Shown one piece after another: positions 4,482-62,830 of a stretch of DNA of 64,000 bases. Each line of letters begins with the position of its first letter. Position 1 is the first letter of the stretch. The stretch comes from Polaromonas sp. (lineage in GTDB: Bacteria > Pseudomonadota > Gammaproteobacteria > Burkholderiales > Burkholderiaceae_C): positions 14,282-78,281 of the forward strand of contig NZ_JACDDD010000006.1 of the NCBI RefSeq assembly GCF_013817205.1. The letters are read 5' to 3'. Under the pieces are notes generated by a model, which worked only from the letters and a program-made list of their open reading frames with translations, made no database searches and had not been told where the DNA came from. Made by a program: the position numbers and the translations under genes.

Positions 4482-5687
4482 ATGCCCGAAGCCGCCACAC
4501 GGCGCCGCCAGCTGGTGCCGTTTGCGGCGCTGTCGGCCAGCTACTTCGCCCACATCGGGTTTTTCAATCCCTACCTGCCGCTGTGGCTCAAGGAGCTGGG
4601 CTTCAGCATCCTGGCGATCAGCCTGCTGACCTCGGTGCAGGCAGCGACACGGCTGTTTGCGCCCTATGGTTGGGGTGCGCTCAGTGACCACACCGGAGAG
4701 CGTGTCAAGCTGCTGCGTTACGGCGCGACCGTGGCGTTGATCAGCTCCTGTGGCCTGTGGCTGGACTTCGATTCACGCTTCGGCATCTGGTGGCTGACGG
4801 CGGTGCTGCTGGTGATGTTTACCCACACCAGCGCCATGATGCCCATGAGTGAGGCGGCCATGGCGCACCTGATCAGCCAGGGCGGCGCCTTCGATGCGCG
4901 GCGCTATGGGCGGGTGCGTCTCTGGGGTTCGCTGGGTTTTCTGGTGACGGTGTTTGCGGCGGGCGCCTGGTTCGAGTGGTTCGGCATGAGGCACTTCCCG
5001 GCCTGGACATTTCTGTCGCTGCTGGCGGTGACGGTCAGCGTCTGGTGTCTGCCCAATCTGAAAGAGGCCGTCAACCCGCATGAAGAGAAAGTGCCGGTGC
5101 TGCCGATATTGCGCCTGCGCCCAGTGCAATGGTTTTTTGCGGCGGCGTTTTTCCATGTGCTGGCGCATATCGGCATCTATGTGTTTTTCTCGCTGTACCT
5201 CGACAGCATTGGCTACAGCAAGGCCATGATCGGCATCTTGTGGGCGGTTTCGGTGGTGGTCGAGATAGGCTGGTTCTACACCCAGGGCCGCTGGCTGCCC
5301 AAATTCAGCCTGACCGGCTGGCTGGTGATCTGCGCTGCCGCCACGACCTTGCGCATGGGGCTGACCGCCACCTATGCCGGCGTGCTGGCGGTGCTGGTGT
5401 TTGCGCAGATGCTGCATGCGCTGACCTTTGCGACCCACCACACGGTGTGCATCGCCTTGCTGTCGCACCATTTCCCCGGGCGTCTGCGCGGCCGGGGGCA
5501 GGCGCTCTACGTGGTGGTGGCTTATGGCATGCCGGGCGTGCTGGGCGGACTCGCGGGTGGGCTGTTGAGTTCGGCTTTTGGCCTGGTCAGCGTGTACTGG
5601 GCCTGCACCGTGGTCAGCCTGATGGCCACGGCTTGCGCCTTTGTGGCTTGGCGGCTGCAGCGCAGTCTCGAAGCTGCCGCTTCCTAA
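4482..5687 (+). CDS. MFS transporter (HcaT/MFS_1-like)
   Basis: About 12 hydrophobic segments, YGRVRLWGSLGF motif; start taken at ATG 4482 after the aroC stop. Confidence 0.85.
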   Translation: MPEAATRRRQLVPFAALSASYFAHIGFFNPYLPLWLKELGFSILAISLLTSVQAATRLFAPYGWGALSDHTGERVKLLRYGATVALISSCGLWLDFDSRFGIWWLTAVLLVMFTHTSAMMPMSEAAMAHLISQGGAFDARRYGRVRLWGSLGFLVTVFAAGAWFEWFGMRHFPAWTFLSLLAVTVSVWCLPNLKEAVNPHEEKVPVLPILRLRPVQWFFAAAFFHVLAHIGIYVFFSLYLDSIGYSKAMIGILWAVSVVVEIGWFYTQGRWLPKFSLTGWLVICAAATTLRMGLTATYAGVLAVLVFAQMLHALTFATHHTVCIALLSHHFPGRLRGRGQALYVVVAYGMPGVLGGLAGGLLSSAFGLVSVYWACTVVSLMATACAFVAWRLQRSLEAAAS

Positions 5688-7541: not shown

Positions 7542-8590
7542 GCAGCGCCTTCAGGCTCGGGCTGCACCAGAACCTTGGTGGCGACCTTGCTGCGTGCCAG
7601 CGCAAAGCCTTCGTACGCCTGTGCCAGCGGCAGGCGGTGCGTGATCATGTGGCGCAGGGTTTCCTGGTGGTGGCGCATGAATTCCACCACCTCGGACCAG
7701 GCCTGTTCCGGCGCGCGGTAGGAGCCGCGGATTTGCTGGTGCTGGCGAACCAGCGCCGTCAGGTCAATCGGCACCGGCGCCGCGTGGATGCCGGTGATGA
7801 CCAGAACGCCGTGGGTTTTGAGAGCCCGCAGCGCGGGGCCGATCACGGCGGCAGCGCCGGTGGCTTCGATCACCACATCAAACTTGCCTTCCTCCAGATA
7901 AGGCGCCAGACCTTGTTCCATGCCCAGACCCGCAAAATCAACCAGGGTGTTGAAGCCCATTTTTTTCAGCACGGTCAGCCGTGCGGTATCGCCATGGCCG
8001 GCCACCACCACCTCGCGCGCACCGGCAGCGCGCGCGAACAGGGCAATACCCTGGCCGATGTTGCCGGGGCCGAGCACTAGCACGCGATCGCCCGCCCGAA
8101 CACCGCCGGTGCGCACGGCTTCGTGGCTCACGGTCAGCGGCTCGGTGAGGGCGGCCACTTCAGCGTCCACGCCCGCGGGTATGGGCACGCAGTTGCGCGC
8201 CGGCACGTTTACCCAGGAAGCAAAGCCGCCGTCGCGCGTGACGCCGATGCCGCGCCGCGTGACGCAGGCGTCGGGCTGGCCCGCCAGGCAGGCTTCGCAA
8301 CTGCCGCACACCACCGAGGGCCGTACCGCCACCAGCTGCTGCAGCGCCAAGCCGTCAACCCCTTCGCCCAGGGCGGCAACCTCGCCGCTGAACTCGTGGC
8401 CCACGGTGACCGGCAGCGCGGCCGCTACAAAGTGGTAGCTGGTTGTCCATTCATCAATGTGAAGGTCGGTGCCGCAGACGCCGGCGGACCGAACCTTCAG
8501 CAGAACCTCGCCCGGGCCGGGCGGCGGCGGGCGCGCAATATCCTGGAGCTGCAGGCCGGGGCCTGGTTGAAGTTTGCGAAGGGATTGCAT
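7538..8590 (-). CDS. Zinc-dependent (MDR) dehydrogenase, sorbitol/threonine dehydrogenase-like
   Basis: CGTDLH, GHE, CGSCEAC...C, TEP, GPGNIG. Confidence 0.9.
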   Translation of the reverse strand: MQSLRKLQPGPGLQLQDIARPPPPGPGEVLLKVRSAGVCGTDLHIDEWTTSYHFVAAALPVTVGHEFSGEVAALGEGVDGLALQQLVAVRPSVVCGSCEACLAGQPDACVTRRGIGVTRDGGFASWVNVPARNCVPIPAGVDAEVAALTEPLTVSHEAVRTGGVRAGDRVLVLGPGNIGQGIALFARAAGAREVVVAGHGDTARLTVLKKMGFNTLVDFAGLGMEQGLAPYLEEGKFDVVIEATGAAAVIGPALRALKTHGVLVITGIHAAPVPIDLTALVRQHQQIRGSYRAPEQAWSEVVEFMRHHQETLRHMITHRLPLAQAYEGFALARSKVATKVLVQPEPEGAA

Positions 8591-8660
8591 CAGGGGTCAC
8601 GCCGGTGGAGAAGATGACCGAGTGTCGAATGCTGTGACTCATACGTCAAAGACCGAGTTT

Positions 8661-8686
8661 GTATTTGAAGCATACTTGAAAACTAT
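8661..8686. promoter_or_regulatory. Putative LysR-type boxes
   Basis: GTAT-N7-ATAC-N7-CTAT between the divergent dehydrogenase and LysR genes. Confidence 0.45.
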
Positions 8687-8712
8687 GGCAACCAGGTCAA
8701 GGAGGGCGAGTC

Positions 8713-9651
8713 ATGGAACTGCGGCATTTGCGTTATTTCGTCGGCGTGGCCGAACAGGGCAGCGTCAGCCGTGCTGCTGAAAAACTGTTCATCGCGCAGC
8801 CTGCACTGTCGGCGCAGATCCGCCAGCTGGAAGAGGAACTGGGCGTCAGCCTGTTTGTGCGCTTGCCTCGGGGTGTGCGGCTCACGCAGGCGGGCGAGTC
8901 TTTTCTGGCCGACGCGAAGGCGATTCTGTCGCGTGCCCAGCAAGCTACGGTTCGGGCGCGCGAGCGGCAGTCAGGCCAGCGGGCCACCCTTCGCCTGGGG
9001 CTGGTTCCTTCCACGACGCATTCCGTGCTGCCGGGACTGCTGCAGCGGGTGCGCGACTCAGGTCTGGCCGCCAACATCGAAGCGCGCGAGATGATCACTT
9101 CGCGGCAACTGCTGGCCCTGCACAATGACGAAATCGACCTCGGTTTTGCCCGCCCCGGCGAAGGCAACACGCCGGCGGAAACGGTGGCCGCCATCGACGA
9201 CCCCTATTGCCTGGTCGTGCCCGAGGGCAACGCCTTGGGCGCAAGCCGCGGGCCGCTCGCGCTGAAGCTGGCCGCTCATGAACACTTCGTGAGTTTTTCG
9301 CGTTACCAGGAGGCCGACTACTTTGACCGCACCGCCGCCCTGTGCCTGGAAGCCGGGTTCACGCCCGACATTCGCCACGAAGCGGGCCAGTTCGTCAATG
9401 TCATGGCGCTGGTGGCTTGCGGCCTGGGCGTGGCGATTGTGCCGGCATCGTTTGCCACGCTGCCGTTTGGCCGCGTGGTGTTTCGACGTCTTGAAGCCTC
9501 ACGCTATAAAAGCCAGCTGGTTATTTTGCGGGCGCAGCGTCAAAGCCAGGACGACTGGTCGTCGGAGATGACGCGTTTGGCGGTGGCGGAGCTCAACAGC
9601 CTGGCACAACGACTTGTAGCGGGTCTGGAGCCGAGTTTTACAGTAATTTAG
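8713..9651 (+). CDS. LysR family transcriptional regulator
   Basis: MELRHLRYF...AAEKLFIAQPALSAQIRQLE; GLGVAIVP. Confidence 0.95.
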   Translation: MELRHLRYFVGVAEQGSVSRAAEKLFIAQPALSAQIRQLEEELGVSLFVRLPRGVRLTQAGESFLADAKAILSRAQQATVRARERQSGQRATLRLGLVPSTTHSVLPGLLQRVRDSGLAANIEAREMITSRQLLALHNDEIDLGFARPGEGNTPAETVAAIDDPYCLVVPEGNALGASRGPLALKLAAHEHFVSFSRYQEADYFDRTAALCLEAGFTPDIRHEAGQFVNVMALVACGLGVAIVPASFATLPFGRVVFRRLEASRYKSQLVILRAQRQSQDDWSSEMTRLAVAELNSLAQRLVAGLEPSFTVI

Positions 9652-52661: not shown

Positions 52662-55442
52662 TCAGGCGCCCAGGCTGTGGTCGCTGGATGCAGCGTGGCT
52701 GAAATAGCGTCGGCTGATCGCGTCAGACAGTTCAAAAGCGGCGCTGCAGCATTGCTCCAGCTGCGCCAGCAGCCCGGCGTGGCGCTCGCTTTCCATGCCG
52801 GGAATGGCGACGCTGAGGTCGGCCAGTTGCCAGCTGCCGGGGTTGGGCAGGGCGCTTGTCATGTCGGGCACGTCCTGCACCGCGCCTGCCGTATTGCGCG
52901 ACAGCTTGCTGAGCCGCTCGCGCAGTGTCTGGGTGACCCAGCCGAGTGAACGCGGGTTGTCGCGGTCCAGCACCAGTAGATCCAGCAAGGCCGGGACTTC
53001 GCGTTGTTGCTGGTACTGCGCGTGGAAAGTGATGGTGCTGTCAAAGAACGCAATGATGGCGTCGAATCCGCCCGCGTCATGCACGGCACCGGTTTCAAAG
53101 CCCAGGATCAGCGCGGCAGCCAGCGTGTTCAGACGCTCAATGTGGCGGCCTGTGCTCAGCAGGCGCCAGCCGTCGTCGCGTGTCATGCGGTCGGTTTGCG
53201 CGCCGGTCATGGCTGCCAGGAAACTGCTGGCAGACTCCAGCGCGCGCAGAGCTTCCACGGACGAATATTCAAGCGCCTGGGTGGCCGGATGCTCCGGACC
53301 GCTGAAAGACGCGCAGTGCCGGAAAAAATCTTCATCTGCCCGCACGATCACATGCCATTGCTCTTGCGACAGGCGCTCGCGCACGGCCGAGGCGGCGCTT
53401 TTGAGGGAGCGCAGGTTGTAGCCGACGCTGGCGGCTTGCTCGGTGTCGGCCAGCGCAGAAATCAGCGACCTCTCGAACACGCGGCGCGCCTGCGTGGCCG
53501 GTGGCACGGACTCCAGCACCAGACCATTGCGCACCGCCATCTCGGACAGCCAGGCCAGCAGGGGTTGAGACGACTGCTCCTCGCCGCTGAGTGATTGCAG
53601 TGTCAATTGGGCCAGGCGAATCGAGTTTTCGGTACGTTCGGTGTATCGGCCCAGCCAGAAGAGGTTCTCTGCCGCGCGGCTGGTCACCGGCGGTTTGTGG
53701 CGCGCAATTGGGGTGCTTGGGTTTAAAACGCCGGGTCGGGTGGTGGGCTCGGTAAAAGCTTTTGTTCCGCGAGTGCTCTGTGCTGCAGCAGGCTCAACGT
53801 CCGCGGCCAGTGCCCATACGTCGGCACTGCTGCCGCCTTGCTGCATGGACGCAATCTTGTTGTTGGGGCCGGCCAGCCGCGCCAGCCCGCCCGGCAAAAC
53901 CTGCCATTCGCCCGTACCATCAGCCACCGCAAAAACGCGCAGCATGGTGGACCGCGGCGCAAGCCGCTCGCCATGCCAGGTCGGCGTTTGCGACAGGGGC
54001 AGGTAGGCCTGCACGGTGTACTCCTCGCTATGCCGCATGATGCGGCCGGCCCATTCGTCCAGCTCACGGCGGGACAACATTTGTGCAATCACCGCCTCTG
54101 TGCCGGAGCCGGGGTAGGTGCCCTTGATGACGCAGTCTTTCAGACGGGGCAAGACCTCATGCAAGGCGGCCTGCTCGCCGCACCACCAGGTGGCCAGCGA
54201 GGGCAGGGCGAGCGGCTCGTTAAGCAGATGGCGCGAAAGCGCGGGCAAAAATCCCAGTAACGCACTGGACTCCAGAAAGGCCGAGCCCGGCGCGTTGGCC
54301 ACCAGCACATGGCCTGCCCGTATCACCTGCAGCAAACCGGGTACGCCCAGGGTGGAGTCGGAACGCAGCTCCAGCGGATCCAGAAACTCATCGTCCAGGC
54401 GCTTGAGCAAGCCGTGCACGGGCTCCAGTCCCTGAAGCGTCTTGAGATACAGTCGGTCGCCGCGCACCAGCAAGTCGCTGCCTTCCACCAGGGTCAGGCC
54501 AAGGTAACGCGCCAGGTAGGCGTGTTCAAAATAGGTTTCGTTGTACGGGCCGGGTGTCAGCAGCACGATACGGCTGTCCTCGCCATCAGCGCCCGCCTGG
54601 CAGCGCGCTTTCATGCCATCTATCAGGGTTTTGTAAGAGGCTGCGAGCCGCTGCACTTTCATCTCGCGAAAGGCTTGCGGGAACAGCCGCGAGATAGCGA
54701 GCCGGTTTTCCAGCAGGTAGCCCAGGCCAGATGGTGCCTGGGTACTTTGCGAGACCACCCACCAGCGCCCGTCGGGGCCGCGCGCCAGGTCAAAAGCCGC
54801 AATGTGCAGGAAGTTGCCCTCAGCGGGTTTTATGCCGTGCATCGCGCGCAGATAGCCCGGGTGGCCTTGCACCAGCGCCGCCGGCAACAGGCCTTGCGCC
54901 AGCAATTGCTGAGGGCCGTAAACGTCGGCCATGATGTGGTCCAGCAGGCGTGCGCGCTGACGGACACCGGTTTCGATGCCGGCCCACTCCTGGGCTGAGA
55001 GGATGACCGGAAACAGGTCCAGCGACCACGGCCGCTGCGGGCCATCAGCATCGGCATACACGTTGTAGGTCACGCCGTTGTCGCGGATCTGGCGCTGCAG
55101 ATTGGCGCTGCGGTGGTTCAGGTCATCAAAACCCTTGCCGCCCAACAATTCGAAAAAGCGGTTCCAGCTGGGTGACAGTGCGGCCTGGGCATCGGTTTTC
55201 TCGGCAGTTTTAGATGGGGCGGCTTGCACCTGAGCCGGTTCCGTACCCGCCATTTGCAGCGATGTGCGCTGGGTCTGGTTTTGACTGGCGGCGGGCGTGA
55301 TCGGCCCCGTGCCGATTGCTATGGCCGTGACGCCATGCAGCTCGTTAAAGTGGCCAGGATCAGCGGGCAGCGCCAGGGCGCGCGCAAGATCAACTGAGGT
55401 CTCCAGCGCTGCTGCCGCAAAAAGTGATTTGTTATTTTCCAC
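52662..55442 (-). CDS. Circularly permuted ATP-grasp ligase fused to alpha-E domain
   Basis: NGVTYNVY, QAPSGLGYLLENR, TPGPYNETYFEH, GGLAR, QQGGSSADVW; alpha-E AENLFWLGRYTER and GRHIER. Confidence 0.92.
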   Translation of the reverse strand: MENNKSLFAAAALETSVDLARALALPADPGHFNELHGVTAIAIGTGPITPAASQNQTQRTSLQMAGTEPAQVQAAPSKTAEKTDAQAALSPSWNRFFELLGGKGFDDLNHRSANLQRQIRDNGVTYNVYADADGPQRPWSLDLFPVILSAQEWAGIETGVRQRARLLDHIMADVYGPQQLLAQGLLPAALVQGHPGYLRAMHGIKPAEGNFLHIAAFDLARGPDGRWWVVSQSTQAPSGLGYLLENRLAISRLFPQAFREMKVQRLAASYKTLIDGMKARCQAGADGEDSRIVLLTPGPYNETYFEHAYLARYLGLTLVEGSDLLVRGDRLYLKTLQGLEPVHGLLKRLDDEFLDPLELRSDSTLGVPGLLQVIRAGHVLVANAPGSAFLESSALLGFLPALSRHLLNEPLALPSLATWWCGEQAALHEVLPRLKDCVIKGTYPGSGTEAVIAQMLSRRELDEWAGRIMRHSEEYTVQAYLPLSQTPTWHGERLAPRSTMLRVFAVADGTGEWQVLPGGLARLAGPNNKIASMQQGGSSADVWALAADVEPAAAQSTRGTKAFTEPTTRPGVLNPSTPIARHKPPVTSRAAENLFWLGRYTERTENSIRLAQLTLQSLSGEEQSSQPLLAWLSEMAVRNGLVLESVPPATQARRVFERSLISALADTEQAASVGYNLRSLKSAASAVRERLSQEQWHVIVRADEDFFRHCASFSGPEHPATQALEYSSVEALRALESASSFLAAMTGAQTDRMTRDDGWRLLSTGRHIERLNTLAAALILGFETGAVHDAGGFDAIIAFFDSTITFHAQYQQQREVPALLDLLVLDRDNPRSLGWVTQTLRERLSKLSRNTAGAVQDVPDMTSALPNPGSWQLADLSVAIPGMESERHAGLLAQLEQCCSAAFELSDAISRRYFSHAASSDHSLGA

Positions 55443-55564
55443 TGCTACCTTTGAACAGGCTCCAAGTATCCTTCATGGCCGGCCCGCCCCCGGCCTTGAC
55501 AGGCAAGACTGCCCGTATTCAATCCCCGGTGTCGCTACCATAAGACAAAGAAGGTGATTGTTCG

Positions 55565-56077
55565 ATGGCCGGTGTGAGCTTTACTGCCACTATTTTTTTG
55601 CAGGGCATCAACCCCTATGTGCTGGTGAGTGCCGCCAGGGCGCGCGCCATCCGACCGGAGTGGCGTAAACCGCTGCAGGTTCTTGCTCGTGTCAACGGCA
55701 AACCTGAACAGGCCTGGCGCGTCAACATGATGCCCGTGGGGAACGGCAGTTTTTACCTCTTCCTGCACGAAACCGTTCGCACCGCCTCCGGCACCGGCGT
55801 GGGTGACCGGGTGCGTATCGAGTTGGCGTTCGACGAGGCGTACGAAGGCGGCCCGGCCCATCCTGTTCCGGTCTGGTTTGAGCAGGCACTGTCAAGCAAC
55901 GCCGCGGCAGCAGCCAACTGGGCGGCGCTCAGTCCGAGCCGAAAGAAGGAAGTTCTGCGTTATTTCGCAGGCCTGAAAACTCAGGCGGCGCGAGAACGCA
56001 ATCTTGAAAAAGCCATGCTTGTGCTCTCGGGGCAGGCCGGACGGTTCATGGCGCGCAGCTGGGCGCAGGGCCGCTGA
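55565..56077 (+). CDS. DUF1905 + YdeI/OmpD-associated domain protein
   Basis: ARVNG...MMPVGNGSFYL, GVGDRV, WAALSPSRKKE...R...LEKA. Confidence 0.8.
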   Translation: MAGVSFTATIFLQGINPYVLVSAARARAIRPEWRKPLQVLARVNGKPEQAWRVNMMPVGNGSFYLFLHETVRTASGTGVGDRVRIELAFDEAYEGGPAHPVPVWFEQALSSNAAAAANWAALSPSRKKEVLRYFAGLKTQAARERNLEKAMLVLSGQAGRFMARSWAQGR

Positions 56078-56462
56078 GGATGTCATCGACCAGCCGCTGG
56101 TCTTCGTCGCACACCCAGCACTCCCTCAGGTTGCCGTCCTGCACGCGGTAACGCAGCAGTCGTTCCACCACCACGGTTTTTCCCTGGTGCTTAAACTGTT
56201 CAACCGCGATGATCGCGCCAAAGTGCTCGCCCACCAGTACGTCGCGGATGGCAAGCAGCTTGCGACTGGTTTTGTCCCGCACCTGCCTGAGAACGGCCAG
56301 GCAAGCGGCTTTTCCGCGATGCGTGCCTGCCAGCGGGTTGCGTCCGAAGTAGTGAAAAATCACCTCGTCGTGGTAGCTGTCCACCATGGTTTGCAGATCA
56401 TTCGCTTCCCAAGCGGCGGCGTAGCGTGTGACCGCTGCGGCGATTTGTTCCGTTTCACGCAT
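56046..56462 (-). CDS. NTF2/SnoaL-like protein
   Basis: YHDEVIFH, PLAGTHRGK, YRVQDGNLRE. Confidence 0.8.
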   Translation of the reverse strand: MRETEQIAAAVTRYAAAWEANDLQTMVDSYHDEVIFHYFGRNPLAGTHRGKAACLAVLRQVRDKTSRKLLAIRDVLVGEHFGAIIAVEQFKHQGKTVVVERLLRYRVQDGNLRECWVCDEDQRLVDDILSGPAPSCAP

Positions 56463-57195
56463 GCAAGGCCGATCGTGCAGTTGGCGCCAAGCGATGCGAC
56501 TCGGCGGTCTTGAGTAGATAGGCCGCAAGCTGAGGCGCGATCTTTTGCTGCCACGCCATCGACGCACCGAAAGTTTCATACGCGCGCACATCTTCAAAAA
56601 GCGCCAGGCCAACAAGCACACATTCGCCCGTGCGCACAGGCAGCCGTGTGAAGGTGTTTTCACTGGTCTCGTTGACATACCAGCCTTGCTGGATCGCTCC
56701 GCCTTCGCCTAAAACCTGCGCCATCTCTTGCCTGCAAAACGCCAGCAGATCAGCCGAAGCCGGCTGCTTCAAATAGAAAATCGTGAGGTCCACAAAGCCA
56801 CGCGGAATTGTCGACTCTCGCTTGTCCGCTCGCCCACGCAAGTCAACCGGAAAGTGTGCTCCCGCCCAGGCGGGACGCAACAGCAGTACGTTGTCAGAAT
56901 CAATCATCGTGGCATTCGCCACGTTGCGATGGGTTTGCCACACCGCGCCGCCGTAAAAGGCGGCGAGCGCATCGTGGCGTGTCTGCATGGTGCTGAAACC
57001 GCGCAGCCACACAAATCGGTTCGCGTCATCAAGATCACGAAACTGGCCGAGGACCGGCATGCCCACCGCATCTTGCGTCTCAAGAAATTCACGATCAAAC
57101 AAGTCGATGAGCACATCCCGTTTGTGAGGATGCAGGGTGTATTGCCTCAGTTCAAGGACATCCAGCGCATAGCGTTCAAGCAGAGAGTGATTCAT
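56455..57195 (-). CDS. NIPSNAP family protein
   Basis: ELRQYTLHP, GQFRD, FVWLRGF, NATMIDSDNVLLLRP. Confidence 0.85.
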   Translation of the reverse strand: MNHSLLERYALDVLELRQYTLHPHKRDVLIDLFDREFLETQDAVGMPVLGQFRDLDDANRFVWLRGFSTMQTRHDALAAFYGGAVWQTHRNVANATMIDSDNVLLLRPAWAGAHFPVDLRGRADKRESTIPRGFVDLTIFYLKQPASADLLAFCRQEMAQVLGEGGAIQQGWYVNETSENTFTRLPVRTGECVLVGLALFEDVRAYETFGASMAWQQKIAPQLAAYLLKTAESHRLAPTARSALHA

Positions 57196-57229
57196 ACAGT
57201 TCCAGTCAGTGGGTAGAAAAGGCGAGGCG

Positions 57230-58210
57230 CTAGGACTCCAGCCTGGTGTAGTTCATGGTCCAGTTGGGCTGCCAGGTCAGGCCCTCGTCAGCGGAAATGG
57301 CTTGCTCCCAGCGGGGCTGCGCGGTGTTCAGTCGCGACCATGTGTGGCGCAGTCGCACAGGCCGACCGTCGATTTGGTCATTGCCTTCCAGTACGCCCTG
57401 GCTGTCGCTGAATCCACCGGTCAGAGCTGGCTGCAACAGACCGTCTCGTGCGGAGACCCAGTAAGCCTTCCAGCGCTGCGCCGCCACGTCAAACAGATGG
57501 ACGGACAGGCCCAGCGGCACGCCTGCACCATCGCGCAATTCGTCATAGTTGGCCAAGCCGCCCAGCAGCGGCTCGCAGATTTGCAGGCCGTCAAAACTCT
57601 CCCACTCATTTCCGTTTTGTGGGGTGGGAAGCAGGCGACGGTTCTGCACCTTCCACTGGCCGAAGAAGAAATCGAAGTCGTGGTTGGCCGAAGGCAGCGC
57701 TTGTTGTGTCGGTGGTGCCGCGTCGCTGCGGGTGAAGGTCATGACCCAGTTGGTCTCCCAGGTCTTACCGTCGTCAGTGGAAAAGGCCTGTTTCCAGCGC
57801 GGCGTTGCGGTGTGTGTGCCCGACCAGGTGTAGCGCACCCGAACCGGCTGGCCTTCGTGGGTGTCCACCCCTTCAAAGACGCCAGTGCCATTGAAAAACT
57901 CGCCTGTAACTGGCGGCTGCAACAGGCCGTCCTCCGGGCTGACCCAATAGATATTCCACTGCCGGGTCTGCAGGTCAAGAAAGCGCAGCGACATGCCGAC
58001 CGGGCCGGCGTCATGAAGCATTTCATCGGTATTGCCCATGCCGCCCAGCAGCGGCTGGCAATACTGGGTGGCGTCAAACTCTTCCCAGTCGGTGCAGCGT
58101 TGCAGCCGCTGGCGCAAGCGCTGGTTGTGTACCCGCCAGTGGCCGAATAAAAAATCAAAATCATGCAGACCTTCGGTGGGGTCTGACGCGGCTTGTGCGG
58201 TTGCGCTCAT
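57230..58210 (-). CDS. Tandem two-domain Trp-rich beta-barrel-like protein (DUF1579-like)
   Basis: Two repeats HDFDF(L/F)FG(H/Q)W...YWVS...GLLQP...RW.QA.S.D.G.TW..NW.M..TR; AGGAGG SD. Confidence 0.75.
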   Translation of the reverse strand: MSATAQAASDPTEGLHDFDFLFGHWRVHNQRLRQRLQRCTDWEEFDATQYCQPLLGGMGNTDEMLHDAGPVGMSLRFLDLQTRQWNIYWVSPEDGLLQPPVTGEFFNGTGVFEGVDTHEGQPVRVRYTWSGTHTATPRWKQAFSTDDGKTWETNWVMTFTRSDAAPPTQQALPSANHDFDFFFGQWKVQNRRLLPTPQNGNEWESFDGLQICEPLLGGLANYDELRDGAGVPLGLSVHLFDVAAQRWKAYWVSARDGLLQPALTGGFSDSQGVLEGNDQIDGRPVRLRHTWSRLNTAQPRWEQAISADEGLTWQPNWTMNYTRLES

Positions 58211-58272
58211 GCATTTCCTCCTGTTGCCCGTTAGCCAAACCGGCCCCGGTCAAGCCAATGTAAAAGCGTAAT

Positions 58273-58289
58273 AGGGCGATATCGGCCCT
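58273..58289. promoter_or_regulatory. Putative operator of the WYL regulator
   Basis: AGGGC-GATATCG-GCCCT in the divergent gap; minus-strand -10-like TACATT at 58256-58261. Confidence 0.55.
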
Positions 58290-58311
58290 GATTAAGTTTT
58301 AAACTGCTTTC

Positions 58312-59256
58312 ATGTATTCACCCACCACACGCGTGCTCACGGTGCTGGAGCTTTTGCAAAGCCACGGCCGGATGAGTGGCGCCGATCTGGCACGTCGGCT
58401 GGACGTGGATGGCCGCACCTTGCGCCGCTACATCGCCAAATTGGAAGACCTGGGAATCCCCGTGGTGGCTGAGCGTGGCCGTTATGGCTGTTACAGCCTG
58501 ATTGCCGGTTTCAAGCTGCCACCCATGATGTTCACAGATGACGAGGCGCTGGCCTTGTCCATTGGCCTCGTGGCAGCACGCGGTCTGGGCCTGGCCGAAG
58601 CTGCTCCCGCAGTGCAAAGCGCGCAGGCCAAGCTGGAGCGGGTGATGCCCGGCAAACTCAAAAACCGCATTCGGGCCCTGGCCGAGACAGTCACGCTGGA
58701 CCTGGCCCGCTCGGTGGCGCAGGGAGACAACACGGCGCTGCTGGCCTTAAGCGATGCCGCCCACGGCTGCCAGCGTGTGCACCTGGACTACCGCTCAGCG
58801 GATGGCTCGGTGACCGAGCGGGACATGGACCCCTATGGGCTGGCTTTTCGGGGAGGGCGCTGGTATGTGGCCGGTTGGTGCCACTTGCGAAAGGATTTGC
58901 GCTCGTTTCGGCTCGACCGTGTGTTGCAGGTGCAGGCGCTCAATGCCGTGTTTACACCGCCGGCCGATTTCAACGCCGTGCAATACCTTGCGCTGGGCAT
59001 TGCCACCTTGCCGCGCGCCTTCAGTATTCGTGTCTTGCTGCATACCAACGTAGAAGCCGCGCAAGCCCAGCTGTTTGAAGGCATTGGTGTTTTTCAGCCC
59101 TGCGAGGAGGGTGTGGTGCTGCACGCGCAGGCCGACGACTTGCCCTGGTTTGCACGCCAGTTGGCCAGGCTGTCGTGTGACTTCGAGATCCGGCATCCAC
59201 CCGCTTTACGCAAGGCTCTGAAGGTTAGTGCCGAGCGGCTGCTCAAGCTGGTTTAG
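58312..59256 (+). CDS. YafY-family HTH-WYL-WCX regulator
   Basis: RTLRRYIAKLEDLGIPV, RGRYGCY, DPYGL...WYVAGWCHLRKDLRSFRLDRV. Confidence 0.93.
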   Translation: MYSPTTRVLTVLELLQSHGRMSGADLARRLDVDGRTLRRYIAKLEDLGIPVVAERGRYGCYSLIAGFKLPPMMFTDDEALALSIGLVAARGLGLAEAAPAVQSAQAKLERVMPGKLKNRIRALAETVTLDLARSVAQGDNTALLALSDAAHGCQRVHLDYRSADGSVTERDMDPYGLAFRGGRWYVAGWCHLRKDLRSFRLDRVLQVQALNAVFTPPADFNAVQYLALGIATLPRAFSIRVLLHTNVEAAQAQLFEGIGVFQPCEEGVVLHAQADDLPWFARQLARLSCDFEIRHPPALRKALKVSAERLLKLV

Positions 59257-59280
59257 ATCCAGCTCAAGCGGGCCCCAGCT

Positions 59281-62200
59281 CTAACGCAAATCCATCGTGA
59301 ACGGAAACTCACGGCTGGGCTGCGCTGGCTGGACCTGGATGCGCCCGGGCGTATGGCCCATCTGGAAAAAGCGGTTCAGGCGTCGGCTTTCGGCTTCGTA
59401 GGAGTTCACCGGCAGGGTGTCGTAGCTCAGGCCGCCCGGGTGCACCACATGGTATTGGCAGCCTCCCAATGAACGTTCCATCCAGGTGTCGACAATGTCA
59501 AAGGTCAGCGGCGCATGCACGCCCACCGAGGGGTGCAGGGCCGATGGCGGGTTCCAAGCCTTGTAGCGCACACCGGCCACGTATTCGCCCACCGTGCCCG
59601 TGTTTTGCAGTGGCAGCGTGCGGCCGTTAACCGTGATGACATAACGGTTGTCGTTGAGGCCGGTGACATGCACCTCGACACGTTCGAGCGATGAGTCCAC
59701 ATAACGCACGGTGCCGCCGGACGAGCCTTCCTCGCCCATGACGTGCCAGGGCTCCAGCGCGCTGCGCAAAGTCAGCTCGATGTTGTTGGCCTTGACTTGG
59801 CCGATCATCGGAAAGCGGAACTCGAAGTGCGGCTCGAACCAGGCCATGTCAAAACCGTAACCAGCCTCGTTGAGCTCGGTCAGCACATCGGCAAAGTCCT
59901 GTCGGACAAAGCCGGGTAACAGGAAGCGGTCATGGAGCTCTGTGCCCCAGCGCGTCATGCGGCCGTGATACGGCTTGTTCCAGAAACGCGCCACCAGCGC
60001 ACGCAGCAGCAACTGCTGCACGATGCTCATGCGGGCATGCGGTGGCATTTCAAAAGCGCGCAACTCCAGCAGGCCGAGGCGGCCCGTGGCCGAGTCGGGT
60101 GAGTACATCTTGTCGATGCAGAATTCGCTGCGGTGGGTGTTGCCAGTCACATCGACCAGGATGTTGCGCAGGGTGCGGTCAACGATCCACGGCGGCATGT
60201 CCTGGCCGTATTTCTGGCGGTTGGTGGTGATCTCGCGCAGCGCGATTTCCAGCTCGTACAGCTGGTCATTGCGCGCTTCATCAATCCGTGGCGCCTGGCT
60301 GGTAGGCCCGATGAACATGCCCGAGAACAAGTAGCTCAGTGACGGGTGGTTGTGCCAGTAGGCAATCAGGCTGCCCAGCATTTCTGGTTTGCGCAAAAAC
60401 GGGCTGTCGGGCGGTGTGGCACCGCCCATCACAAAGTGGTTGCCGCCGCCCGTGCCGGTGTGGCGGCCATCGGTCATGAACTTTTCAGCAGACAGCCGTG
60501 TTTCGTGCGCGATTTTGTAGAGAAACTCGGTGTGTTCAACCAGCTCGTTCCAGTTGTAGGCCGGGTGGATGTTGACTTCAATGACGCCGGGGTCGGGCGT
60601 GACCTGCAGCATTTTCAGGCGCGGGTCGCGCGGCGGTGGATAGCCCTCAAGCACGATCTGCAGATTCAGCGTTTGCGCACTGGCTTCGATCGCGGCCAGC
60701 AAGTCCAGGTATTCCTCGAGCCGCTCTACCGGCGGCATGAAGACGTAAAGCGCGCCGGTGGGCGGTTTGGTGCCGACCTCGCCCGCGGCGCGCTTGACTT
60801 TGGGCTCGTCCTTGGGTCCGTTGGCGCGGGCAGGGTCGCGCACTTCCACACACAGCGCAATGCGCGGCAGCCAGGGTGCCGACTGTTTGGACGCCGGCAT
60901 GCGGTCTGCATCTTTGGCAAGGGCGGCTGCGGCTGGTTCGACTGGAACCGCGGCGTCTGCGACCGCTGCACGTCGTTCGCTGATGGTTTCGGCGGAAGGC
61001 AGTTCCTCACGCGGCGCAAAGGGGTCGGCCTCGTTGACGCCGGGGTTGTCGGTTTTGGACACCCAGGGCATGGCGTCAAGTGGAAGGCGATAACCCATGG
61101 GCGAGTCGCCCGGGGCAAGGTACATGCGGTCATCCCGAAAGTACCAGGGACCGGTGGCCCACAACGGGCCCGTGGCCGGCGCGTTGTCTGATTCTTCCCG
61201 TACCTTGAGCGGCAGCACATAACCGACCACCGCATCCAGACCCTGCGAAAACACGCGGCGCAGGCGCTCGCGTTCCATCGCGTCGTCCAGCTTGGTGTCA
61301 AACGGGTCCACGTTGACGGGCAGGCGGCGCTCGCGCCAGAGGTAGTACCAGGTGTCTTCATACCCCGGTGTGATGTGCTGGGCAGACAGGCCGAGCTTGC
61401 CGGCCAGCGTTTCGGTGAAACGGCGCGCATCGTCGCTGGTGTAGCTGCAAGGCTGGCGCTCGTCGGTGAACAGCTCGGGGTTTTTCCAGACTGGCTGGCC
61501 ATCCTTGCGCCAGAAAATGCTGAGCGCCCAACGCGGCAATTGTTCACCGGGGTACCACTTGCCCTGGCCAAAATGCAAAAAGCCGCCCTGGCCGTACTCC
61601 GCGCGCAGCTTTTGCACCAGCTCCGTGGCGTAGCCGCGTTTGGTCGGGCCCAGGGCGTCGATGTTCCACTCTGCCGCGTCCCGGTCCTGCGTGGCAACAA
61701 AGGTTGGCTCGCCGCCCATGGTCAGACGCACATCGCCAGCGAGCAGATCCTGGTCCACCTGGTGACCCAGCTTGAGCACATCGGCCCATAACGCGTCGGT
61801 ATAGGGCTGGGTCACGCGTGGCGATTCGAAAATGCGCTGCACCCCCATGTGGTGGGCGAACTCCACTTCGCTTTTGTCGACGCCGCCTTCTATCGGCGCA
61901 GCGCTCGATGGCTCCGGCGTGCAGGCCAGCGGGATGTGGCCTTCACCCGCCATCAGACCGGACGTCGGGTCCAGGCCGACCCAGCCGGCGCCGGGCAGGA
62001 ACACCTCGCACCAGGCGTGCAGGTCGGTGAAGTCGCTTTCCGCACCGCTGGGACCGTCCAGCGACTTGACGTCAGCCTTGAGCTGGATCAGGTAGCCCGA
62101 GACAAAACGCGCCGCCAGCCCCAGATGCCGGAACAGCTGGACCATCAGCCAGCCGGTATCGCGGCAGGAGCCGATGGCGAGTTGCAGGGTTTCTTCTGGC

Positions 62201-62703
62201 GTCTGCACGCCGGGCTCCATGCGGATGGCGTATTTGATGTCGCCCTGCAACTTCTGGTTCAGCCCGACCAGGAAGTCGATGGTGCGTTTGGGCGTGCGGT
62301 CCACGCCGTTCAGGTAGGCCTTGAGCAGCGGCGTGAGCGTCTCGGTCGCTAGGTAGGGCGCCAGTTCGCGCGCCTGATCCTTGCTGTAGGTGAAGGGAAA
62401 CTCCTCTGCTTCGGGCTCGAGGAAGAAGTCAAAGGGGTTGAACACCGCCATCTCGACGACCAGGTCAACCGTGACCTTGAACTCCCGCGTGGGTTCAGGA
62501 AACACCAGCCGCGCCTGGTAGTTGGCAAACGGGTCCTGCTGCCAGTTGATGAAGTGGCCCTTGGGCTCGACGCTCAGCGAATAGGACAGCACCTTGGTGC
62601 GGCTGTGCGGGGCAGGGCGCAGGCGCACGACTTGGGGGCCGAGCTTGACCAGGCGGTCGTATTTGTAGTGGGTGATGTGGCTCAGGGCAACGTGGATGGA
62701 CAA
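59281..62703 (-). CDS. Transglutaminase + DUF2126 putative amidoligase
   Basis: GSCRD, DLHAW, GLDPT triad; LTMGGEPTFV, DPGVIEVN, GTGGGNH, WHNHPSLSYLF, GLLELRAFEMPP; TTG start. Confidence 0.92.
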   Translation of the reverse strand: MSIHVALSHITHYKYDRLVKLGPQVVRLRPAPHSRTKVLSYSLSVEPKGHFINWQQDPFANYQARLVFPEPTREFKVTVDLVVEMAVFNPFDFFLEPEAEEFPFTYSKDQARELAPYLATETLTPLLKAYLNGVDRTPKRTIDFLVGLNQKLQGDIKYAIRMEPGVQTPEETLQLAIGSCRDTGWLMVQLFRHLGLAARFVSGYLIQLKADVKSLDGPSGAESDFTDLHAWCEVFLPGAGWVGLDPTSGLMAGEGHIPLACTPEPSSAAPIEGGVDKSEVEFAHHMGVQRIFESPRVTQPYTDALWADVLKLGHQVDQDLLAGDVRLTMGGEPTFVATQDRDAAEWNIDALGPTKRGYATELVQKLRAEYGQGGFLHFGQGKWYPGEQLPRWALSIFWRKDGQPVWKNPELFTDERQPCSYTSDDARRFTETLAGKLGLSAQHITPGYEDTWYYLWRERRLPVNVDPFDTKLDDAMERERLRRVFSQGLDAVVGYVLPLKVREESDNAPATGPLWATGPWYFRDDRMYLAPGDSPMGYRLPLDAMPWVSKTDNPGVNEADPFAPREELPSAETISERRAAVADAAVPVEPAAAALAKDADRMPASKQSAPWLPRIALCVEVRDPARANGPKDEPKVKRAAGEVGTKPPTGALYVFMPPVERLEEYLDLLAAIEASAQTLNLQIVLEGYPPPRDPRLKMLQVTPDPGVIEVNIHPAYNWNELVEHTEFLYKIAHETRLSAEKFMTDGRHTGTGGGNHFVMGGATPPDSPFLRKPEMLGSLIAYWHNHPSLSYLFSGMFIGPTSQAPRIDEARNDQLYELEIALREITTNRQKYGQDMPPWIVDRTLRNILVDVTGNTHRSEFCIDKMYSPDSATGRLGLLELRAFEMPPHARMSIVQQLLLRALVARFWNKPYHGRMTRWGTELHDRFLLPGFVRQDFADVLTELNEAGYGFDMAWFEPHFEFRFPMIGQVKANNIELTLRSALEPWHVMGEEGSSGGTVRYVDSSLERVEVHVTGLNDNRYVITVNGRTLPLQNTGTVGEYVAGVRYKAWNPPSALHPSVGVHAPLTFDIVDTWMERSLGGCQYHVVHPGGLSYDTLPVNSYEAESRRLNRFFQMGHTPGRIQVQPAQPSREFPFTMDLR

Positions 62704-62813: not shown

Positions 62814-62830
62814 AGCAAGAGCTGCGCCAA
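62814..62830 (-). promoter_or_regulatory. sigma54 (-24/-12) promoter for the DUF2126 gene
   Basis: Minus strand TTGGCGCAGCTCTTGCT, GG-N10-GC. Confidence 0.75.

Follow-up and report, generated by a model that had tools for sequence, protein, structure and literature searches.

A window of 64,000 nucleotides of DNA from Polaromonas sp. (assembly GCF_013817205.1, contig NZ_JACDDD010000006.1, positions 14,282 to 78,281 of the forward strand) was analyzed, and positions are numbered here along that whole stretch. Between positions 55443 and 59280 it carries a gene for a WYL-type transcription factor, separated by a 101-nt gap from a leftward, divergent operon whose first gene encodes a protein made of two beta-barrel domains. 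The gene content of the window was defined by open reading frame (ORF) calls and Pfam searches with the gathering cut-offs applied (Table 1). This placed every gene, on its strand, as a sequence-only reading of the block had claimed. That reading had also listed the "DUF1579-like x2" pair as separate units. The pair proved to be a single polypeptide of 326 amino acids with two barrel domains 52% identical to each other, so that the leftward operon holds three cargo genes, for the tandem barrel, NIPSNAP and SnoaL proteins. They are tightly packed, with 34 nt between the barrel and NIPSNAP genes and the SnoaL ATG overlapping the NIPSNAP stop codon by 8 nt. The YdeI-like gene on the opposite strand converges on the SnoaL gene, with an overlap of 32 nt between their 3' ends.

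Table 1. Features of the WYL-barrel locus and its flanks (window coordinates)
Feature	Position	Strand	Basis
HTH_11-WYL-WCX transcription factor (314 aa), PafBC/SiwR/DriD class	58312..59256	+	Pfam
Tandem (2x) DUF1579-like beta-barrel protein (326 aa), first gene of the operon	57230..58210	-	
NIPSNAP-family protein (246 aa)	56455..57195	-	Pfam, 28.8 bits (cut-off 22.3)
SnoaL_2/NTF2-like protein (138 aa)	56046..56462	-	PF12680, 41.7 bits (cut-off 27)
DUF1905+OmdA (YdeI-like) gene	55565..56077	+	Pfam, 34.8 and 47.8 bits (both above cut-offs)
Operator palindrome AGGGC-gatatcg-GCCCT (AGGGC-N7-GCCCT), common to both divergent promoters	58273..58289	.	Comparative
Predicted cargo -10 hexamer TACATT, 11 nt from an operator half-site	58257..58262	-	
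Mirror -10 hexamer TAAACT, 11 nt from the opposite half-site, with the WYL ATG 6 nt further on	58300..58305	+	
Flank: transglutaminase-N/core + DUF2126 protein	59281..62703	-	Pfam, E = 0
Flank: circularly permuted ATP-grasp + alpha-E protein	52662..55442	-	Pfam

Conservation of the gene pair and its operator

To define the conserved unit, a profile of the barrel domain was searched against one genome per species, yielding more than 587 confirmed matches, of which the best 80 loci were kept with 8-kb flanks. A homologue of the WYL regulator was present within 8 kb of the barrel gene in 64 of these loci, which span Proteobacteria, Actinomycetota, Acidobacteriota and Myxococcota. The 3.77-Mb genome to which the window belongs has four WYL genes, so that the chance of finding one within 8 kb is about 2%. 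The NIPSNAP gene adjoined the barrel gene in 32 loci. The WYL gene was most often divergent from the barrel gene and adjacent to it with no NIPSNAP gene (37 loci), or else the barrel, NIPSNAP and WYL genes followed in that order on one strand (18 loci). A divergent WYL gene was accompanied by NIPSNAP in five loci and, lying further off, in another four; five loci had NIPSNAP only and 11 had neither gene. Three WYL lineages were distinguished beside the same cargo, with 38–84, about 33 and 27–31% identity to the window regulator, and in each of them a palindrome particular to that lineage lies upstream of a -10-like hexamer.

Unsupervised clustering of the neighboring ORFs returned only the WYL and NIPSNAP families as recurrent partners; the remaining recurrent clusters looked like ORFs that overlap these genes or run antisense to them. 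SnoaL and YdeI were each found in none of the 80 barrel loci. The proposal that four ligand-binding folds form a unit was thus not sustained by the co-occurrence check, in which only WYL plus barrel, often with NIPSNAP, recurs. As judged from these comparisons, SnoaL and YdeI are local passengers, SnoaL being lineage-specific, and the module consists of WYL regulator, operator and barrel, with an optional NIPSNAP and interchangeable passengers. A 2.75-kb metagenome contig (L125) repeats the order of the window, with a WYL gene, a tandem barrel, NIPSNAP and a frameshifted SnoaL-like stretch; the window version is therefore lineage-specific but not unique. The WYL fragment of this contig is 95% identical to that of the window and its tandem barrel 74%, an uneven divergence that suggests recombination within the module.

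The gap between the two divergent genes contains a palindrome with half-sites AGGGC (58273–58277) and GCCCT (58285–58289), and an AGGAGG sequence lies 6 nt before the barrel ATG. Across loci with a divergent regulator, the intergenic palindrome has the consensus GATAGAGGGCGgAAAcCGCCCTATTT, with core GGGC-N7-GCCC. Retained in 43 of the 80 loci, it reaches from Polaromonas as far as Gaiellaceae and Acidobacteriota, by which point identity between the regulators has fallen to 38%; a strict pattern, RGGRC-N7-GYCCY, had missed CGGGC variants, and its relaxation raised the number of loci from 34 to 43. On the side facing the barrel gene, a TAnnnT hexamer starts exactly 11 nt past GCCC in 42 of these 43 loci. 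No -35 element accompanies this arrangement: the best match at a spacing of 16–18 nt reached three of six positions or fewer in 47 of 49 distinct promoters, which is the background level. A TGn motif was found in none of the 49, and a scan for the sigma70 consensus detected no promoter anywhere in the block.

A position weight matrix (PWM) built from the 43 sites gave one strong match in the whole 3.77-Mb genome, namely this operator, at 28.6 bits; the next distinct site, at 17.3 bits, is terminator-like. The earlier proposal of a palindrome at the place of the -35 of the leftward promoter was in this way confirmed, and the single strong operator indicates that the regulon is local. On the other side of the operator, the mirror -10 hexamer is so close to the WYL start codon that a leaderless regulator mRNA and a shared operator are implied. 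A mirror TAnnnT occurs at the same regulator-side spacing in seven related loci, and Gaiellaceae-type loci have TTGACT or TTCACT at the regulator-side position. Other types of loci carry palindromes of their own, just upstream of a -10-like hexamer: ATACCTGCCA...TGGCAGGTAT in the Acidovorax type and CTGCTGACA...TGTCAGCAG in the Lysobacter type. Gene pairing, the fixed phasing of operator and -10 hexamer and the single genomic site together lend strong comparative support to the earlier proposal that the WYL protein controls the operon divergent from it, and the relation of regulator, operator and target is well supported and very probably as described.

Properties of the regulator and of the cargo proteins

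The window regulator matched the HTH_11 (2.5e-14), WYL (4.2e-23) and WCX (4.5e-9) models of Pfam, and thus has the full HTH-WYL-WCX domain order of the PafBC/DriD/SiwR class. Its nearest solved relative by sequence is PafBC (6sj9, 4.3e-19), followed by PafB and PafC in their complex with RNA polymerase (7p5x, 4.8e-12 and 7.8e-8), CapW (about 8e-6), DriD (8tp8, 3.4e-5) and BrxR (about 1e-3). In the alignment, the regulator sequence LRSFRLDRV, which includes R197-S-F199-R200, falls opposite FRL(D/S)R of PafB and PafC. Among the 64 co-located regulators and that of the window, R197 and R200 are conserved in at least 95% and F199 in at least 80%. In PafBC, mutation of the beta4/beta5 loop (two Arg and Phe) in both WYL domains led to loss of viability under DNA stress, and the residues changed in the R204A-R207A variant of SiwR are ones to which the authors ascribe the sensing of nucleic acids (Keller, Flattich & Weber-Ban 2023, PMC10693628). 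Conservation of this Arg-x-Phe-Arg loop, which PafBC and SiwR need for function or sensing, agrees with the earlier assignment of the regulator to the WYL type that responds to nucleic acids.

The structure of the N-terminal barrel domain was predicted with AlphaFold2 from an alignment of 71 sequences. The model had ten strands and a predicted local distance difference test score (pLDDT) of 92.8. In a Foldseek search of the PDB, its top matches were the spirocyclases OssO and OlmO (E 2.7e-8 to 2.4e-5; template modeling (TM) score 0.72–0.81), followed by nitrobindins and Rv2717c (TM about 0.55–0.66). The view that the cargo folds are pocket-forming was upheld. Searched against solved structures, the barrel family profile found no sequence relative; its matches were Asp-box similarities to sialidases that arose by chance. 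The label "DUF1579-like" held in part: many tandem homologues carry precomputed PF07617 matches, and one barrel homologue scores 21.1 bits against the DUF1579 cut-off of 25.2, but the window protein itself, whole or in halves, had no DUF1579 (PF07617) match at E <= 10. The label thus suits a remote relative lying outside the Pfam model. About 1,800 single-barrel clusters of homologues (E <= 1e-10) and about 1,700 clusters of tandem length (E <= 1e-20) were found. They are mostly unnamed or hypothetical, and none of the 120 single-barrel matches listed has a Pfam domain.

In the 71 aligned sequences the conserved barrel positions include many Trp and several acidic or polar residues, with no invariant or near-invariant His and no conserved Cys. 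Because no His is conserved, haem binding of the nitrobindin type is unlikely. Many barrel homologues have Sec, lipoprotein or Tat-like signals, whereas the window protein has none. In a group of Lysobacter and Pseudoxanthomonas loci (L050, L054, L057, L059, L065, L084 and similar ones), the N-termini of the barrels seem Tat-like, with Arg-Arg and an Ala-rich hydrophobic stretch; there the WYL regulators are co-directional and the palindrome is that of the Lysobacter type. Barrel signals resembling Sec or lipoprotein ones occur in four loci with a WYL regulator of the window lineage (L034, L040, L083 and L099).

The NIPSNAP protein scored above the threshold of its family (PF07978) with a match that covers the N-terminal half only. 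In two metagenomic proteins of 561–566 amino acids (P0147 and P0149), two barrels and a NIPSNAP domain are fused in a single chain; the longer one, P0149 (566 amino acids), is collinear with the tandem barrel and NIPSNAP proteins of the window and 40% identical to each. These fusions argue that barrel and NIPSNAP work together. The closest homologues of the SnoaL protein, 70% identical, are from Variovorax and Acidovorax (L121–L124), where they end an AraC-glyoxalase(VOC)-SRPBCC-SnoaL cassette that converges on a gene for a FAD monooxygenase. There too, small proteins with ligand-binding folds are encoded in a row, with a regulator of a different kind.

The insertion site between DUF2126 and ATP-grasp

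The block separates the DUF2126 gene from that for the circularly permuted ATP-grasp protein, two genes described in the sequence-only reading as often adjacent. This was seen in same-genus genomes, where DUF2126 directly adjoins the ATP-grasp gene with a gap of 130 nt (G006) or 182 nt (G013). The distance from DUF2126 to the small transglutaminase gene is 2.6–3.1 kb in about 13 of 15 relatives, compared with 6.7 kb here; the site is thus normally empty. A homologue of the barrel was found in only one of 24 same-genus genomes, and there at another locus. In the closest relative (G023), whose DUF2126 protein is 94% identical, the site is occupied by an unrelated ORF of 340 amino acids (L022, 6244–7266) resembling an alpha/beta hydrolase, as recognized by eye from its sequence, which suggests a permissive insertion spot. 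About 1 kb of extra sequence lies at the site in G011. Small insertions seem to recur here, as at a hotspot.

Other versions of the module occupy exactly this position in different Polaromonas. In L029 a WYL regulator and a single barrel are found with a LysE exporter (LysE at about 8470–9129). In L111 (strain YR568), L114 and L118 the tandem barrel is alone, co-directional with the ligase genes and with no WYL regulator gene at the site, and the operator and cargo -10 hexamer are kept directly after the DUF2126 stop codon. Close barrel homologues paired with a WYL gene are also present at unrelated sites (L109, L112 and L117). NIPSNAP and SnoaL are replaced there by a LysE exporter and a Flavodoxin_2/FMN reductase in L109 (the two genes together occupying 7983–8633 and 8698–9282) and by a LysE-family exporter after the barrel in L117, also from Polaromonas (4491–5150).

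The G+C content of the block is 0.58–0.61, and that of its flanks 0.62–0.65. As stated in the earlier reading, there is no sign of an integrase or target duplication: a search of the ORFs and flanks revealed no integrase or transposase ORF and no flanking direct repeat, tRNA genes not having been included in the scan. An interpretation as a mobile element or genomic island was accordingly set aside, the slightly lower G+C and the variable content of the site in relatives being its only hints. A conserved stretch immediately precedes the start of the ATP-grasp gene in all versions of the site and marks the right-hand limit of the insertions (window 55443–55490; L022 7320–7372; L023 4570–4607; L029 9258–9285). 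Its core is CATrAAGGmATACTTGGrGCC, and the conserved length grows from about 30 nt in the shortest pairs to some 50 nt at most in the closest pair. It may serve as leader or ribosome-binding-site context, or as a promoter; a sigma54 promoter was considered and rejected, the GG-to-GC spacing being 9 nt and not 10.

The insertion had been thought to cut the downstream genes off from a sigma54 promoter. A sigma54-like -24/-12 match, TGGCGCAGCTCTTGCT (one mismatch), does lie 111 nt upstream of the DUF2126 start (62814–62829, minus strand); such matches are at chance level in the window (59 found, 57.9 expected). The idea of a cut-off found no support. The barrel operon is transcribed in the same direction as the ATP-grasp gene, and a scan detected no terminator-like site on the minus strand between SnoaL and ATP-grasp. 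Instead of isolating the ATP-grasp genes, the barrel operon could give them a new promoter.

Probable mode of action, alternative explanations and known systems

By analogy with characterized WYL factors, the locus is probably a SiwR/DriD-like, locally acting, nucleic-acid-sensing activator of an operon for the handling of small molecules. A homodimeric HTH-WYL-WCX factor would bind the palindrome AGGGC-N7-GCCCT, around which a compact bidirectional promoter with mirror symmetry would be arranged. Toward the cargo genes, the operator would take the place of the missing -35, with its center near -31 and a distance of 11 nt to the -10 hexamer. The signal would be a nucleic-acid fragment, probably single-stranded DNA (ssDNA) arising from genotoxic stress, bound by the WYL domains. 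The factor would then most likely activate sigma70 RNA polymerase in the "sigma adaptation" manner of PafBC and SiwR, turning on the tandem-barrel, NIPSNAP and SnoaL genes. Autoregulation is implied by the operator lying about 10 nt ahead of the -10 that serves the mRNA of the regulator itself, which is probably leaderless. Barrel and NIPSNAP may act together, most likely binding or converting a hydrophobic small molecule, and the variable third genes (LysE exporter, FMN reductase, SnoaL) would point to handling or export of toxic compounds. The module probably entered the normally empty DUF2126/ATP-grasp site in a Polaromonas sublineage, once or several times, either of which a tree of the tandem proteins would allow.

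The steps of this mechanism differ in strength. Activation rather than repression is favored, with reasonable confidence, because the -35 is missing and the phasing of operator and -10 is rigid. For ssDNA as the signal, suggested by the conserved WYL loop, the case is evenly balanced. We infer induction by damage and a role in detoxification by analogy with SiwR, DriD and PafBC, and capture or detoxification of a small molecule by barrel and NIPSNAP is plausible, if tentative. In its boldest form, the proposal would make the DUF1579-like barrel and NIPSNAP a widespread, unrecognized effector of an SOS-independent genotoxic-stress response, in which an ssDNA-sensing WYL activator would act on a -35-less, mirror-symmetric promoter and the effector would capture or inactivate DNA-damaging small molecules, in the cytoplasm or, where exported, in the periplasm, with some Polaromonas ligase genes brought under damage control; as a whole this is speculative and on the doubtful side. 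Several observations weigh against an ssDNA-sensing activator of a detoxification operon. Sixteen of the 80 barrel loci have no WYL gene nearby, and SnoaL and YdeI are not conserved partners. The barrel lacks conserved His and Cys and an identifiable ligand, and the signal peptides of many of its homologues indicate extracytoplasmic action for these, a poor fit to a purely intracellular role in DNA damage. Moreover, WYL ligands other than ssDNA are possible, and an operator centered near -31 would also suit a repressor.

Such a repressor, resembling CapW or BrxR, would block RNA polymerase at the promoter and leave it on binding of a ligand. The overlap of the operator with the core promoter, and also with the regulator's own promoter, is in line with this, and CapW and BrxR are detectable relatives of the regulator. 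However, promoters with neither a -35 nor an extended -10 are expected to be weak unaided, the exact 11-nt phasing is what would be expected of a factor that contacts RNA polymerase and not of simple occlusion, and PafBC, the nearest solved relative, is an activator, as are SiwR and DriD; repression is therefore held to be unlikely, though deserving of attention. The WYL factor could, on the other hand, respond to the small molecule handled by its cargo, or to a derivative of it; the operon would then serve detoxification or catabolism under induction by its substrate, with no relation to DNA damage. Retention of the PafBC/SiwR loop argues against this, as does the fact that PafBC, DriD and SiwR, those with a defined ligand among the WYL factors considered, all bind ssDNA. 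The possibility is thus considered rather unlikely, even if the partner genes for LysE exporter, FMN reductase and SnoaL do handle small molecules, many barrels are exported, and a single operator in the genome is what a dedicated local regulator would have.

The position of the block raised the question of a link with the DUF2126/ATP-grasp/transglutaminase ligase system: the WYL-dependent promoter would drive the ATP-grasp and transglutaminase genes downstream, or the product of the ligase would be a ligand of the barrel. Such a link would fit the presence of at least three module versions at this very position in different Polaromonas (that of L029, that shared by L111, L114 and L118, and that of the window), the common strand of barrel operon and ATP-grasp gene, and the negative terminator scan between SnoaL and ATP-grasp. 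But the other 79 loci, once Polaromonas is left aside, contain neither DUF2126 nor ATP-grasp within 8 kb, close WYL-paired homologues reside at unrelated sites, the ligase genes are present without a barrel in the majority of same-genus genomes, and the hydrolase gene in the closest relative suggests a spot that merely tolerates insertions; a functional link is improbable. Least probable by far is a role in anti-phage defense or as a toxin-antitoxin system, with the WYL protein as guard in the way known from BREX and CBASS islands. The anti-toxin reading had been put forward from the sequence, BrxR- and CapW-type regulators do guard defense systems, and the WYL models of PADLOC match the regulator. 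PADLOC gave no match for any of the four non-regulator proteins, though, and the proposal was abandoned: no nuclease, NTPase or membrane-effector domain was present among the gene calls and neighbor annotations examined, the conserved neighbors are only WYL and NIPSNAP, and the genes on either side have metabolic roles.

WYL transcription factors are common, and few have known targets, namely PafBC, DriD, SiwR, CapW and BrxR. To these the locus adds a triplet of regulator, operator and target conserved across several phyla, and a sharp DNA motif at fixed promoter geometry that offers a handle on the generality of "sigma adaptation" beyond actinobacteria. It likewise gives a first functional handle on a large barrel family that has no Pfam model and is absent from the papers retrieved: a literature search returned no publication that connects WYL with DUF1579 or NIPSNAP, or that names DUF1579 at all. 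For annotation, the four-fold cassette is to be regarded as a modular assembly in which SnoaL and YdeI should not count as components of the system.

The closest analogue of the module is SiwR of Mycobacterium smegmatis, a homodimeric WYL factor whose gene is divergent from a pair of small DinB-like genes. The factor recognizes an imperfect palindrome of 19 bp located between -35 and -10 and requires the -26 region; it also binds ssDNA, and H2O2 and zeocin elicit its response (PMC10693628). Common to both are a homodimer-type HTH-WYL-WCX factor acting locally and divergent from a short operon of small, poorly understood enzymes or ligand-binding proteins, a palindromic operator in the -35 to -10 interval, and the Arg pair of the WYL loop. 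The cargo is different, being a DUF1579-like barrel with or without NIPSNAP here and DinB/YfiT-like in SiwR, as is the operator sequence, and the module extends over several phyla whereas SiwR is found mainly in fast-growing mycobacteria. A mirror-symmetric divergent promoter is seen at the present locus.

DriD of Caulobacter crescentus is an ssDNA-activated activator with the same domain order, and its box, ATACGAC-N7-GTCGTAT, lies about 17 nt before the driD start codons in homologues (PMC9186387, PMC10853764). Here too the half-sites are GC-rich and separated by an A/T-rich gap of 7 nt, and a copy is found about 17–21 nt before the start codon of the regulator itself. Unlike this regulator with its one operator, DriD runs a multi-gene damage regulon (didA, recA, recJ, bapE, dnaG), and similarity between the two sequences is low (E = 3.4e-5). 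Actinobacterial PafBC (PMC6789036, PMC8635444, PMC11804915) is the closest solved relative by sequence, binds its promoters at -26, next to the -10, and is activated by ssDNA. It differs in being a heterodimer or fusion that recognizes a non-palindromic motif and controls about 150 genes, whereas a single gene product, a palindrome and one local target are found here. CapW and BrxR (PMC9122588, PMC9122601) are, like the window regulator, local WYL proteins with palindromic operators in the promoter of the neighboring operon, but they repress phage defense, while the cargo here has no defense signature and its promoter no -35.

The predicted barrel resembles in fold the 10-stranded, calycin-like OlmO/OssO and nitrobindin structures (7sfn, 7sfp, 2a13, 3ia8), most closely the former pair. 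Identity is only 8–15%, the locus is outside any polyketide cluster and no haem-ligating His is conserved, and membership in these families is not claimed on the strength of the model. Taken together, the module appears to use the logic of SiwR, DriD and PafBC with a different operator, an uncharacterized cargo and a mirror-symmetric promoter.

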